NCBI RefSeq assembly: GCF_021246445.1
Contig: NZ_JAJQXW010000002.1
Location: 186,001 to 250,000 of the forward strand
Direction: 5' to 3'
From: Rhabdothermincola salaria
GTDB lineage: Bacteria; Actinomycetota; Acidimicrobiia; Acidimicrobiales; Acidimicrobilacustridaceae
Length of the DNA stretch: 64,000 nt
This document shows, in pieces, positions 46,248 to 59,624 of the stretch; the first letter of the stretch is position 1; every line of letters starts with the position of its first letter. The position numbers and the translations under genes were made by a program. The notes beneath the pieces are model-generated. The model did no database searches and had not been told where the DNA came from. It saw only the letters and a list, made by a program, of their open reading frames with translations.

Positions 46248-46274
46248 GGAATGCGATGCCCGGCCACCGGGGTT
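46248..46274 (+). promoter_or_regulatory. ECF (SigR/SigH-type) promoter
   Basis: GGAAT-N18-GGTT. Confidence 0.65.
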
Positions 46275-46368
46275 CCCGGGGGCACCTCGTCGGACAGGAC
46301 CCGCACATGGCTCGAGAGAACTGGCACCTCGCACCGTCCATCGCCGTACCGCCACCGGGCGCGGCCCG

Positions 46369-47847
46369 ATGAGCCTGGTCAGCGACCACGAACGCGACGG
46401 CACCGACGTGCTCGTCGTCGGTGGTGGAGCCGGCGGACTGACCACGGCCACCCACGCGGCGCGACGGGGAGCCAAGGTGCTGCTGGTCAGCGCGGGGCCC
46501 CTCGGAGGGGACTGCACCCACACCGGGTGCGTGCCGTCGAAGACGTTGCTCGCCGCCGCCGCCGAGGGTGCCTCGTTCGACGAGGCACTGTCCCGGGTGC
46601 ACCGGACCGTCGCCCGCATCGCCGCGACCGAGGACGAGCGCACCCTCGCCCGCGCCGGCATCGGCGTGGTCCGGGGGCGAGCGCACCTCCTCGGTGACGG
46701 CGCGATCGACGTCGACGGCCACGTCCTGCGCTCGCGCCACATCGTGTTGGCCACCGGCGCCACCGCGGCCCTCCCCCCGATCCCCGGGCTGGAGGCCATC
46801 GGTGCGCTCACCAACACCACCGTGTTCGAGCGTCGCCCCCGTCCCGACCGCTTGGCGGTGGTCGGCGGTGGCGCCATCGGCTGCGAACTGGCGCAGGCCT
46901 TCGCCCGCCTGGGCACGTCGGTGACCGTGCTGGAAGGGGCCGACCGGCTGCTCCCGGGAGAGGACCCGGCCGCATCGAGCATGGTGACCGCCGCCCTCGA
47001 AGCCGACGGCGTGCGAGTCCTGACGGGCACGCGGGTCGAGTCGGCGTCGCGTCAGGACGGCGTCGCCTGTCTGCACCTGGGGAACGGCGAGGACGTCCCC
47101 GCCGACGAGGTGCTCGTGGCGACCGGTCGGCGACCTCTCTCGGAGGGACTCGGTCTCGAGGCCCTCGGCGTCGAGGTCGACGAGGGCCGCCACATCGTCG
47201 TGGACCGCACCTGCGCCACCGACGTCCCGGGCCTGTGGGCTGTCGGGGACGTGACCCAGTGGGGCGGCTTCACCCACGTCGCCGGCAACATGGGGTTCGT
47301 CGCGGCCGTGAACATCACCAAGCGCCATCGGTGGCAGCCGTCGCGGAAGGTCGAACGCCGGGTCGTCCCCCGGGTCGTGTTCACGTCCCCCGAGGTGGCC
47401 CAGGTCGGGATGACCGAGAGCGAGGCCGCCGACGTGGGCGGACGGGTCGCGGAAGTCCGTCTCGACGACGTGGACCGGGCCCTCACCGAAGGCCGGACCG
47501 GCGGCTTCGTGAAGCTGATCGCCGGCCCTCGGCCCGTGCTGGGAACGCTCGGAGGCGGCCGGATCCTCGGCGCCACGATCGTCGCCCCCCGTGCCGGGGA
47601 GCTGATCGGCGAGGTGGGACTGGCCATGAAGACCCACATGTTCACCGGCCGGCTGGCCCAGACGATGCACGCCTACCCCACCTGGTCGATGGCCCTCCAA
47701 CAGGCCGCCACCCAGTTCTTCTTCACGACCCACGGAGCCGGGGCCCGCCCCGCCAGCGCCTCCCCCACCGGTCCCCTCCCCACGGTCGACGCCACCCGTC
47801 GACGATCGCAGACGCCACCGGCACCGGCAGGCACACCGACGGCGTGA
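46369..47847 (+). CDS. Pyridine nucleotide-disulfide oxidoreductase (Lpd/MerA-like, without the MerA Cys-Cys tail)
   Basis: GGGAGG, GGDCTHTGCVPSK, GGGAIGCE, HAYPT. Confidence 0.88.
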   Translation: MSLVSDHERDGTDVLVVGGGAGGLTTATHAARRGAKVLLVSAGPLGGDCTHTGCVPSKTLLAAAAEGASFDEALSRVHRTVARIAATEDERTLARAGIGVVRGRAHLLGDGAIDVDGHVLRSRHIVLATGATAALPPIPGLEAIGALTNTTVFERRPRPDRLAVVGGGAIGCELAQAFARLGTSVTVLEGADRLLPGEDPAASSMVTAALEADGVRVLTGTRVESASRQDGVACLHLGNGEDVPADEVLVATGRRPLSEGLGLEALGVEVDEGRHIVVDRTCATDVPGLWAVGDVTQWGGFTHVAGNMGFVAAVNITKRHRWQPSRKVERRVVPRVVFTSPEVAQVGMTESEAADVGGRVAEVRLDDVDRALTEGRTGGFVKLIAGPRPVLGTLGGGRILGATIVAPRAGELIGEVGLAMKTHMFTGRLAQTMHAYPTWSMALQQAATQFFFTTHGAGARPASASPTGPLPTVDATRRRSQTPPAPAGTPTA

Positions 47848-47940
47848 CCCGCCGACGAAGGTGCCCTCGGCGACGCCGGGACAGCGCTGACCGGTGAGCT
47901 CGGCCGCCGCGGGGCGTGGCCGGAGGCGGTCGGGTGCGGG

Positions 47941-48294
47941 TCAGGCGGGTCGCACGCCGGACCGGCGGCGACGCCACCACGGCGCCGGGCGCTCCCGGCG
48001 CTCGATGCCCGCCGAGTCGGCGAGGGCGAGCACGGTCCGGGCCGCGGGGTTCACGAGGACGGTGTCACCCAGCCGGACGGTGGGGACGGTCTCGTCGCCA
48101 CCGGTCGCGGCCCGCACCACCTCGGCTCCCGACGGGTCGTGCCAGATGTCGATCTCCGTCGTCTCCAGCCCCGCTCGCCGCAGCGATCGACGCAACGACG
48201 CGCAGAACGGGCACCCCGGTCGCCAGTACACGACCAGCTCGGGGACGGCCCGGGGCCCGCGCTCGGACGGTGTCGGGGGCGGCGGCGTGGTCAC
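47941..48294 (-). CDS. Glutaredoxin/mycoredoxin-like protein
   Basis: YWRPGCPFC..ETVPTV. Confidence 0.8.
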   Translation of the reverse strand: MTTPPPPTPSERGPRAVPELVVYWRPGCPFCASLRRSLRRAGLETTEIDIWHDPSGAEVVRAATGGDETVPTVRLGDTVLVNPAARTVLALADSAGIERRERPAPWWRRRRSGVRPA

Positions 48295-48302
48295 GGGTGA
48301 GG

Positions 48303-48329
48303 AACCCCCGCCGGTGCCCACCTCATTCC
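48303..48329 (-). promoter_or_regulatory. ECF promoter, probably leaderless
   Basis: GGAAT-N18-GGTT, 8 nt before GTG 48294. Confidence 0.65.
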
Positions 48330-48347
48330 CGCCCGGCGGGGGGGGAC

Positions 48348-48956
48348 TCACAGGTGCCGCCGGGCCCAGACCCCGCGCTGGACCACGCCGACCAGCACGG
48401 CCCCGGCCATGACCGAGAAGATCAGGGGCGCGGCCGACGGGAACGCCAGGAAGACCGTGAACACCACGATGGTCTCGGCCCCCTCGACGAGTGCCGGTGG
48501 CATGGTGATCGACGTCAGCTCGCCGGTGCTCGCCGCACCGGCCGCCCGCTTCTCCGCCAGCGCCGACAGGTAGGTCCACGAGATGGTGTTGACGTAGAAG
48601 GCGGCCAGCATGACCGCGAGCGAGATCCAGCCCGCCCGGGTGTCGAGCCACAACGCCACCCCGATCGGCACGAGCGCGTAGCCGACGGTGTCGAGGACCA
48701 TGTCGAGGTACCCGCCCAGGTCGGTCGCCCCACCCCGGGCCCGGGCCACGGCGCCGTCGAGCCCGTCGAGCAACCGGCTGGCCAGCCAGGCCGCCACCGC
48801 GAGCCAGGCCAGCCCGGCCCAGGCGGCACTGGCGGCGGCCACGGTGAGGACGAACGCGGCGGCGGTGACCGCACCCGGCCCGATGATGCGCCCGACCCGA
48901 GAGGCCAGCGGCCCGACCAGCGCCTCGTTGGTGCGGCGGAGCCGCTGGTCGAACAT
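48348..48956 (-). CDS. CDP-alcohol phosphatidyltransferase family (YnjF-like)
   Basis: LLDGLDGAVAR..TDLGGYLDMVLD; LVEGAET. Confidence 0.9.
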   Translation of the reverse strand: MFDQRLRRTNEALVGPLASRVGRIIGPGAVTAAAFVLTVAAASAAWAGLAWLAVAAWLASRLLDGLDGAVARARGGATDLGGYLDMVLDTVGYALVPIGVALWLDTRAGWISLAVMLAAFYVNTISWTYLSALAEKRAAGAASTGELTSITMPPALVEGAETIVVFTVFLAFPSAAPLIFSVMAGAVLVGVVQRGVWARRHL

Positions 48957-58785: not shown

Positions 58786-58790
58786 CGGCG

Positions 58791-59318
58791 TCAGGTGGCG
58801 TCGGCGAGACTCGTCATGCGCTCGACGAGGGCGTCCTCACCCATGGTCCCGACGAAGACCTCCACCTCACCGCTGGCACCGACGAAGGCGAACGCCGGTT
58901 GCGCGAACACGCCGTAGTCCGACCAGATCGACCCGTCGGCGTCGACCACGTGCTCCAGCGCCCCCGTACCGGTGTCCGCGACGAAGCCCTCCATCGCTGG
59001 AATCTCGCCTCGACCCGCGACCCCGACCACCTGGACCCGCCCGTCGAAGGCCTCGGCTGCAGCCACGACGTCCGGCGCCTCGGCTCGACAGCTCGTGCAC
59101 CACGGCGCCCAGAACCACAGCACCGAAGGTGCCCCCTCGAGGGAGGCCGAGTCGAACTCGCCACCGCTCACCGTGGCCGCGGTGAACCCCGGGGCGGCGG
59201 CATCGCCGGCACCGGAGGGCCCCTGCGCCCCACCATCGGAGGAGCTGCCCCCGCAGGCCGCAGCCACCAGCCCGAACCCGAACACGACGGCCAGAGCGCG
59301 AATCCACATTCGTTGCAT
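58791..59318 (-). CDS. TlpA/ResA-like thioredoxin lipoprotein
   Basis: Lipobox AAAC; FWAPWCTSC; QP. Confidence 0.85.
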   Translation of the reverse strand: MQRMWIRALAVVFGFGLVAAACGGSSSDGGAQGPSGAGDAAAPGFTAATVSGGEFDSASLEGAPSVLWFWAPWCTSCRAEAPDVVAAAEAFDGRVQVVGVAGRGEIPAMEGFVADTGTGALEHVVDADGSIWSDYGVFAQPAFAFVGASGEVEVFVGTMGEDALVERMTSLADAT

Positions 59319-59326
59319 GCCTCGCC

Positions 59327-59352
59327 AACCCGCTTCGTCGCAACGGCATTCC
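59327..59352 (-). promoter_or_regulatory. ECF promoter, probably leaderless
   Basis: GGAAT-N17-GGTT, 8 nt before ATG 59318. Confidence 0.75.
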
Positions 59353-59404
59353 CGCCCGTGTCCGCGTCCGCGCCGGGCGACCGGCCGACCGGCCGCGCCC
59401 GATC

Positions 59405-59430
59405 GGAATGCCTCCGCCGCCCACCGGGTT
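59405..59430 (+). promoter_or_regulatory. ECF promoter in front of a truncated gene
   Basis: GGAAT-N17-GGTT. Confidence 0.7.
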
Positions 59431-59438
59431 CTCGGCGC

Positions 59439-59624
59439 CTGCCCACCGACGCCGACCTGACGGCCTTCACGAACGCCGGCTACCGAGAGGAGGAGGTGCT
59501 GCAGATCGTCCTCGCCATCGCCGTGAAGACGATCAGCAACTACACCAACCACCTGTGCCACACCGAGGTGGACGACGTCTTCTCCCAGCGATCCTGGTCC
59601 GACCCGGGACACGCCGCCGGCTGA
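59439..59624 (+). pseudogene. C-terminal remnant of a carboxymuconolactone decarboxylase/AhpD-family gene
   Basis: DADLTAFTNAGY.EEEVLQIVLAIAVKTISNYTNHL. Confidence 0.7.

Follow-up and report, generated by a model that had tools for sequence, protein, structure and literature searches.

Why are eleven copies of one promoter of the SigR/SigH thiol-stress type gathered in about 13 kb of the genome of Rhabdothermincola salaria, and what would switch the genes behind them on and off? The locus occupies positions 46248 to 59624 of a stretch of 64,000 nucleotides (NZ_JAJQXW010000002.1, positions 186,001 to 250,000), called the window below. It was originally predicted from its sequence to be a clustered extracytoplasmic function (ECF) sigma factor regulon, forming a self-contained, probably transferable thiol/redox or metal(loid) stress system. 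That a SigH-like sigma factor commands a local thiol-redox regulon here is, on the sequence evidence, very probable. The fuller proposition, an accessory SigH/SigR-type (ECF12-like) thiol-stress circuit whose local regulon includes a brake, stands at even chances; the candidate brake, ZAS2, is a second, putative zinc anti-sigma (ZAS) encoded back to back with the sigma factor and its cognate partner, ZAS1.

Promoter copies and transcription starts

All 11 predicted copies of GGAA(T/G)-N17/18-GGTT were recovered at their predicted coordinates and strands, the 64-kb window holds no further copy, and the -10 side of each reads GGGTT:

46248..46274, +, promoter motif before disulfide oxidoreductase 1, with a 94-nucleotide leader
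48303..48329, -, promoter motif upstream of the mycoredoxin-like gene
50738..50763, -, promoter motif of the ZAS2 gene
50774..50799, +, promoter motif of the sigma gene, autoregulatory
53281..53307, -, promoter motif before the HD-GYP gene
53429..53454, +, promoter motif before the DUF3179 gene
55458..55483, +, promoter motif, GGAAG variant, before the DoxX gene
56303..56328, -, promoter motif before the small membrane protein, via a 9-codon upstream open reading frame (ORF)
56361..56386, +, promoter motif upstream of disulfide oxidoreductase 2
59327..59352, -, promoter motif of tlpA-ccdA
59405..59430, +, promoter motif whose present target is a gene remnant

Against the 11 real copies, 1000 dinucleotide-preserving shuffles of the 13.5-kb cluster averaged 0.105 and never held more than 3. 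The genome scan proposed with the original prediction found 19 copies in the rest of the 3.9-Mb genome (0.066 expected per 13.5 kb) and at most two in any other 13.5 kb; of the 16 genomic copies of the GGAAT-only form, 10 lie inside the cluster. All 11 fall entirely outside the 16 ORFs of a span of which only 9.8% is non-coding. A weaker motif at 41254, with a spacer one base shorter and inside an ORF of a neighbouring integrated element, was excluded.

The four divergent pairs are present, with 10, 121, 32 and 52 nucleotides between their -35 boxes. Not every copy opens an intact transcription unit: at 59405 (+) the target is an AhpD-like remnant, truncated at its 5' end, rather than a whole gene. 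The copy at 50763 (-) does point into a unit, whose first target is a 60-residue zf-HC2 gene (ZAS2) that had not been listed. Behind the copy at 56328 (-), an ATG at +8 is out of frame and opens a leaderless 9-codon ORF with one Cys (56265-56294, -), whose stop overlaps the start of a 58-residue membrane protein, a possible case of translational coupling.

Leaderless messenger RNAs had been suggested by five in-frame start codons 8-9 nucleotides after GGTT; there are six (the mycoredoxin-like protein, the second anti-sigma, the sigma factor, HD-GYP, DUF3179 and TlpA). In the open complex of Mycobacterium tuberculosis SigH the GTT is numbered -11 to -9 (PMC6411747), so that a start codon at offset 8 is +1. 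Among 143 unique sites in 80 related loci, an ATG or GTG stands at offset 8 in 61, at offset 9 in 19 and at offset 10 in 12, each other offset accounting for 2-8. These are lower bounds, as are the counts below for autoregulation, ZAS2 start codons, mycoredoxin-like genes and regions upstream of core SigH, the narrower site patterns used for them having missed 27-base sites. Leaderless transcription is thus well supported by inference.

The local sigma factor, its zinc anti-sigma and a putative second one

The regulatory genes occupy the centre of the cluster:

50808..51368, +, ECF sigma factor, SigH/SigR-like paralogue, 186 residues, leaderless, PF04542 and PF08281
51365..51658, +, ZAS1, cognate zinc anti-sigma, 97 residues, CHCC type, soluble
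50546..50728, -, ZAS2, second zinc anti-sigma-like protein, 60 residues, zf-HC2, HHCC type, three helices, leaderless
50765..50770, +, TAGCGT, possible housekeeping -10 in the 10-nucleotide gap between the back-to-back -35 boxes, a putative basal sigma promoter

The local sigma factor contains only the sigma2 and sigma4 domains (Pfam), and its closest natural sequence in the PDB is SigH (E 2.8e-26). The core SigH orthologue of this genome sits elsewhere, at C2:688950, and is just 38-40% identical to it. On the SigH equivalog model TIGR02947 (cut-off 251.55 bits) the local protein scores 111.5 and the core orthologue 246.6, just under the threshold. In a quick tree with few outgroups the local sigma falls into a clade of its own (SH-aLRT 94), sister to that of core SigH (98). 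By these sequence measures it is a distinct paralogue, not core SigH. A soluble zinc anti-sigma lies directly downstream in 75/80 related loci, 73 of these 75 being of the CHCC type with an N-terminal Cys, as in ECF12. The promoter likewise falls within the ECF12 form GGAAT/GGAAYR-N17-18-GTT, as a stricter GGGTT subset and by sequence only.

The equivalents of SigH W81, I85, N88, I91 and N92 and the GTVMSRLHRGR helix are kept, so that the residues reading G-11/T-10 and the -35 helix are conserved, and the specificity loop is altered and one residue shorter than that of SigH. With a wider, neutral pattern, G was found at -12 in 34 and at -13 in 33 of 36 unique ZAS2 promoters, and at -12 in 27 and at -13 in 28 of 30 promoters of the sigma gene itself. 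In contrast, trxB promoters, taken as core SigH targets and found in 26/30 genomes, carry GGGTT in just 6 of 26. The two G are therefore kept by a selector other than SigH, and we infer that the local sigma reads a strict, GGGTT subset of the SigH consensus. Scattered GGAA..GTT promoters occur elsewhere in the genome, including before trxB; further genes behind them, named by their N-termini, are presumably trxA, dnaK, clpB, pirin, PPOX-like and mycoredoxin-like genes. Since the cluster promoters form a subset of its consensus, core SigH probably reads them too, as a second input. The prediction of a self-contained system is thus upheld only in part.

A leaderless TANNNT precedes the sigma gene in 38 of 54 related loci classed as non-autoregulated, and a TANNNT occurs at the place of TAGCGT in 5 of 27 autoregulated ones, this window counted. 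In many related loci the ZAS2 promoter is the only strict motif beside the sigma gene, which then has the leaderless TANNNT. This window has both, an autoregulatory copy and TAGCGT. Autoregulation of core SigH found no support, as none of 12 loci had the motif upstream of it by a pattern that would miss 27-base sites.

Close orthologues of the local sigma (>60% identity) were found in 8/40 relatives and 1/4 congeners. In a phylum sample its family profile matched 13/300 genomes at E 1e-55, the three weakest, near 1e-56, being only about 50% identical; the named relatives that carry it are nearly all Acidimicrobiia. The strict motif occurs 116 times in the 1.10 Mb of the 80 related loci, versus about 8 in shuffles, and precedes the same genes in relatives. 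Together with the CHCC anti-sigma and the CxxC cargo, this upholds the prediction of a locally clustered, SigH/SigR-like thiol-redox regulon.

ZAS2 carries His where ZAS1 carries the N-terminal Cys, 24 residues before HxxxCxxC in the window, within the spacing of 23-26 that marks the HHCC type (24-28 across the family). It was found divergent from the sigma gene in 41/80 related loci, and all 41 have His and none Cys at that position; the family counts out of 40 below omit one of them, L095. ZAS2 is present across most subclades of the sigma tree, and the three strongest ZAS2 matches among the 40 genomes all lie in sigma-bearing ones. The motif stands within 70 nucleotides upstream in 39/40 cases, the start lies 8-11 nucleotides past GTT in 30/40, and a ZAS2 displaced by 2 kb in genome G007 retains its own promoter. 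Neither protein reaches the RsrA equivalog cut-off (TIGR03988, 62.5 bits), ZAS1 scoring 38.6 and ZAS2 28.4. Acidic residues beside the cysteines aid redox sensing by RsrA (PMC3177212), and the first such flank (E39-equivalent) is acidic in 71/73 ZAS1 versus 17/40 ZAS2. In RsrA itself Cys11 is required for oxidative release, and the Cys11His (HHCC) variant is reported to remain bound to sigma-R after oxidation (PMC4960319). In Corynebacterium glutamicum, extra RshA made from a SigH promoter shuts the response down (PMC3489674). These two precedents suggest that ZAS2 may act as an induced, oxidation-proof brake. Consistently, its structural model fits helices I-III of sigma-bound RsiW, RslA, MucA, RseA and ChrR. 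An Asp in helix I is invariant in the family and the adjacent Glu nearly so; an acidic helix-I residue is a known sigma4 contact of class I anti-sigmas (PMC7406223), to which the Asp/Glu of ZAS2 would correspond.

The proposed circuit and its alternatives

At rest, ZAS1 would hold the sigma factor. By analogy with RsrA, thiol oxidation would form a disulfide between the N-terminal Cys and the CxxC of ZAS1, expel zinc and free the sigma, which would then transcribe from GGAA(T/G)-N16/17-GGGTT promoters, roughly half of which would give leaderless messages. Its own operon would be among the targets, giving positive feedback. The induced genes would supply cytoplasmic reductants (two disulfide oxidoreductases, the mycoredoxin-like protein and the FMN reductase) and an envelope thiol-repair chain running from CcdA to TlpA, with DUF3179 as probable end user. 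The back-to-back promoter would meanwhile yield ZAS2, which without the trigger cysteine would stay on the sigma in an oxidised cytoplasm and limit or end the response. Core SigH would probably provide a second input to the same promoters.

Whether ZAS2 is such a sigma-induced brake is, by this reasoning from analogy, an evenly balanced matter, as several observations pull the other way. No intact divergent ZAS2 was seen in 39/80 related loci. Its fold matches are weak (best E 0.43), with none in Foldseek at E 0.001. Helix IV, the main sigma2-binding and specificity-giving part of class I anti-sigmas (PMC7406223), is absent from the model, and 25/40 family members have a short tail. The protein is strongly basic here (+9), which is awkward for binding a DNA-binding sigma4. 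In the phylum-wide sample a second ZAS accompanies 4/15 sigma loci and all four keep the cysteine, so that oxidation-proofing is not the family-wide reason for having two; moreover, the HHCC protein RslA is reported to respond to H2O2 (as cited in PMC4960319). The link between sigma and motif is also imperfect. GGAA(T/G)..GGGTT precedes mycoredoxin-like genes in 3/9 genomes where the local sigma was not found, one of them 100% complete. The 32 sigma-less genomes average 3.6 strict copies (116 in total) against 8.75 in the 8 sigma-bearing ones (70 in total), with 28 copies of a backwards control motif in the 40 genomes, and one sigma-bearing genome, G035, has just one strict copy. More ambitious still, and rather doubtful in our judgement, is the combined picture of two ZAS with opposite redox chemistry served by back-to-back promoters, of a sigma-induced HHCC copy, often without helix IV, that through sequestration feedback gives a redox-independent pulse and arose in Acidimicrobiia when an older second anti-sigma underwent a Cys-to-His change, and of an envelope chain ending in DUF3179.

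There are several alternatives. ZAS2 could be a second sensor that releases the sigma on another signal (singlet oxygen, hypochlorite or zinc loss), full induction of the same local regulon requiring both inhibitors to be off. Singlet oxygen is known to react rapidly with the HHCC zinc site in ChrR (PMC6432622), the second ZAS of distant lineages is a CHCC protein with a full-length tail, and helix IV is kept in 15/40 ZAS2. This is nonetheless unlikely, as ZAS2 has no extra sensor domain and is made from a sigma-type promoter, that is, after induction, which fits feedback better. Still a little less likely is that the cluster belongs chiefly to the core SigH regulon. SigH would then drive all the cluster promoters, those of the local sigma and ZAS2 included, as a cascade in which the local sigma only amplifies and ZAS2 may damp SigH or both. 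The cluster promoters do fit GGAAT-N18-GTT, as seen before trxB in relatives, the trxB promoter of this very genome also ends in GGGTT, mycoredoxin promoters of the GGGTT type exist without the local sigma, and the specificity helix is frequently missing from ZAS2. Set against this are the two G at -13/-12, kept in about nine of ten family promoters and not in those of trxB, the confinement of the three strongest ZAS2 matches to sigma-bearing genomes, and the lack, in all 11 copies, of the A of the M. tuberculosis SigH -35 element GGAAYA, although that A is present at just 9 of 26 trxB promoters as well. Lower again we place a local regulon in which ZAS2 does not bind the sigma at all, being cargo, a small zinc or thiol sink, or an anti-anti-sigma that titrates ZAS1 and so adds positive feedback. 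In its favour, ZAS2 is basic (+9) and ZAS1 acidic (-8) in this genome, helix IV is missing, and the ZAS2 family averages only 33% column identity and is degenerate or lost in close relatives (at locus L042 one CxxC cysteine of ZAS2 is gone, and at L043 only its promoter is left). Yet the invariant helix-I Asp with its nearly invariant neighbour, and a family median charge of just +1, argue against this reading.

The least probable alternative by far is a recently acquired, mobile metal(loid)-resistance island. It would account for the patchy distribution (8/40 relatives, 1/4 congeners), for the proximity, at 4 kb, of an integration site in tRNA-Arg(ACG), and for the MerR or ArsR-like and rhodanese-like genes beside a few related clusters. 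The border of the integrated element is as follows:

42079..42121, +, 43-bp repeat of the tRNA-Arg(ACG) 3' end, which marks where the element integrated on the left side of the cluster has its right border; outside the regulon

The tRNA gene lies at C2:174686-174760, the integrase is located between it and the repeat, and no third repeat was found in C2; because of this attachment (att) repeat the element ends 4 kb left of the cluster, which is therefore neither enclosed by att sites nor accompanied within them by an integrase or transposase. Its composition is typical of the genome as well: its tetranucleotide distance falls at the 62nd percentile of 288 genome windows versus the 98th for the element, and its GC content at third codon positions is 0.92, versus 0.94 for the genome and 0.82 for the element. 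Of enclosure by att repeats, atypical composition and patchy distribution, only the last was found. In addition, 42/80 related loci adjoin the same chromosomal HU gene, and no close sigma was found among 72,556 plasmids at E 1e-25, a collection in which we assume this class to be poorly represented. The prediction of a probably transferable unit is therefore not supported, and nor is the metal(loid) role, as neither reductase has the C-terminal cysteines of MerA and the cluster contains no arsenic or metal-efflux gene. Patchiness and the variable surroundings of the closest loci fit old gain followed by repeated loss or rearrangement, and transfer between kin of similar composition is possible.

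Cargo, neighbourhood and known counterparts

The identities predicted for the cargo were confirmed by Pfam and NCBIfam. Four genes join the original list: ZAS2, the 58-residue membrane protein, the AhpD-like remnant and, following the radical SAM gene, a CDP-alcohol transferase.

46369..47847, +, class I pyridine nucleotide-disulfide oxidoreductase 1, with CxxxxC and HAYPT at the C-terminus but not the C-terminal cysteine pair of MerA
47941..48294, -, leaderless glutaredoxin/mycoredoxin-like protein with CPFC
48348..48956, -, CDP-alcohol phosphatidyltransferase, in several relatives adjoining an ABC transporter
49000..50439, -, radical SAM protein of an unnamed family (CxxxCxxC), probably co-transcribed behind ZAS2
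51716..53272, -, membrane-anchored HD-GYP protein, leaderless
53463..54647, +, DUF3179 protein, lipoprotein-like signal, invariant CxxC, modelled as two Rieske-like domains, leaderless
54692..55438, +, flavodoxin-fold protein of the NADPH-dependent FMN reductase family, with an uncertain start
55522..55998, +, DoxX family membrane protein
56096..56272, -, 58-residue membrane protein of no named family, relatives in 24/80 loci
56457..57857, +, class I pyridine nucleotide-disulfide oxidoreductase 2, two cysteines only, both in CxxxxC
57904..58785, -, CcdA/DsbD transmembrane domain protein
58791..59318, -, leaderless TlpA-like thioredoxin-fold lipoprotein with WCTSC
59439..59624, +, gene remnant truncated at the 5' end, which matches AhpD/CMD proteins in their C-terminal part

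The mycoredoxin-like protein has the mycoredoxin family TIGR02200 as its best hit, at 79.3 bits and below the 89.5 cut-off. MerA has a C-terminal cysteine pair. Identity with MerA was rejected for both disulfide oxidoreductases, which have no cysteine at all in their C-termini and score 358 and 291 bits on TIGR02053 against a cut-off of 454; family cut-offs likewise rejected mycothione reductase and lipoamide dehydrogenase.

The confident model of DUF3179 (pLDDT 95) comprises two Rieske-like domains, the invariant CxxC being located in the first. Its first 42 structural matches are Rieske-fold proteins with middling scores (best Z 8.3, root-mean-square deviation 3.1, 96 residues aligned), and Foldseek returned no match at E 0.001. 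Given a lipoprotein-like signal and co-regulation with TlpA-CcdA, it is the likely end user of exported reducing power. A selenocysteine form of DUF3179 (UxxC/T) is on record (PMC13188914), and this genome encodes a tRNA-Sec (G000:C2:662642-662737); yet the cluster DUF3179, TlpA and mycoredoxin-like proteins carry plain CxxC, which rules selenocysteine out for them.

In relatives the expected synteny was found only in part. Dense motif clusters recur, with 14 copies in 34 kb of G007:C12 and 7, 6 and 6 strict copies in L046, L044 and L048, but the 13-kb gene set is not fixed. Matches in the 80 loci number 35 for the disulfide reductases, 24 for the small membrane protein, 13 for DUF3179 (11 with an upstream motif), 8 for CcdA, 4 for the CDP-transferase, 3 for the radical SAM protein, 2 for the mycoredoxin-like protein and none for HD-GYP or DoxX; peroxiredoxin-like, DUF427-thioredoxin, GH15, YjeF and ABC transporter genes appear as further cargo. 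Judging by these gene contents, the cargo is drawn from a common pool and reshuffled among loci. A close DUF3179 occurs in 7/8 sigma-bearing genomes versus 0/32 others, these kin not being independent, and the unlinked DUF3179 of G012 still has the motif. In five loci (L115, L120, L035, L192 and L195) an ABC transporter accompanies the cluster, beside a CDP-alcohol transferase in four and near a radical SAM gene in two, a set that to us recalls E. coli ynjBCD-ynjF.

Three unlinked GGAA(T/G)..GGGTT promoters in this genome (G000:C1:1306965-1307326, C2:516848-517161 and C5:227082-228281) may mark outlying regulon members; the genes behind them we take to be a DUF427-like gene (from its sequence), a second mycoredoxin-like gene and a flavoprotein gene. 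A form GGAATA-N16-GGGTT with an inverted repeat in the spacer (CCGACC...GGTCGG-like) recurs at G009:C40:57346, G011:C100:10590 and G033:C5:47625, among others, where the repeat might serve as an operator within a SigH promoter.

The right edge of the cluster appears eroded. The AhpD-like remnant (59439-59624), for which no counterpart was found in 40 relatives, is fused to an orphaned promoter, which suggests a deletion. Beyond it, a cytochrome c lipoprotein gene (59803-60213) without a motif of its own may be read through from 59405, and a methyltransferase gene (61571-62818) was not found in five close genomes. To the left, the 53-kb element at tRNA-Arg(ACG) (G000:C2:174760-228121, window 1-42121) has its integrase and excisionase-like genes at its right end, and its large genes look to us like defence genes of the DNA methylase, helicase and kinase kinds. 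The stretch that separates the att repeat from the cluster (window 42497-45847) has lower GC content and element-like composition, and carries flavin monooxygenase, DUF4262 and cupin genes and one that presumably encodes a protein like truncated haemoglobin.

The system would work like SigR-RsrA of Streptomyces coelicolor and SigH-RshA of M. tuberculosis (ECF12), yet its proteins are neither SigH nor RsrA by equivalog cut-off. Shared with these are a two-domain ECF sigma, a soluble CHCC anti-sigma at +1, a GGAAT..GTT promoter, autoregulation with a possible basal promoter, and thiol-redox targets. What sets it apart is a separate clade, the stricter GGGTT, the changed loop, a small, gathered and envelope-leaning regulon, and a second, separately encoded ZAS; the accessible text of the ECF12 description gives one anti-sigma at +1 and mentions no second (PMC7826278). 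Clustering alone is only a modest surprise, as ECF sigmas commonly lie among their targets (PMC7826278). In C. glutamicum too, the sigma gene is transcribed from housekeeping promoters and the anti-sigma from a sigma-dependent shut-off promoter (PMC3489674), but there the induced inhibitor is the same redox-sensitive RshA, and here a different protein without the trigger cysteine. ZAS2 resembles the HHCC proteins ChrR and RslA in that its first zinc ligand is a His and its zinc core is built of the same three helices; unlike them, it is a bare protein of 57-96 residues standing beside a CHCC partner, whereas each of them has a sensor part, cupin or membrane, and is the sole anti-sigma of its sigma. 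The envelope genes resemble known CcdA-TlpA thiol-reduction pathways, such as those feeding MsrAB, in that a CcdA/DsbD membrane domain adjoins a thioredoxin-fold lipoprotein, and differ in the absence of Msr and in having DUF3179 as the co-regulated exported CxxC protein. Neither the separate clade, nor the GGGTT promoter class, nor the CHCC and HHCC pair was found in the literature searched, outside which most subscription journals lie and where an ECF subgroup entry may exist.

Known SigR/SigH responses are shut off when the same sensor is re-reduced or overproduced, or when the sigma is degraded. If the brake is real, it would represent a new way to close a thiol-stress response, through a second inhibitor that oxidation cannot remove, and the ZAS1/ZAS2 pair would put to a natural test the rule by which, among anti-sigmas, oxidation makes only the CHCC type let go. 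The sharply defined promoter, for its part, links DUF3179, the 58-residue membrane protein, the radical SAM family and two orphan disulfide reductases to one condition, and suggests CcdA, TlpA and DUF3179 as an envelope reducing chain that could be rebuilt in vitro.

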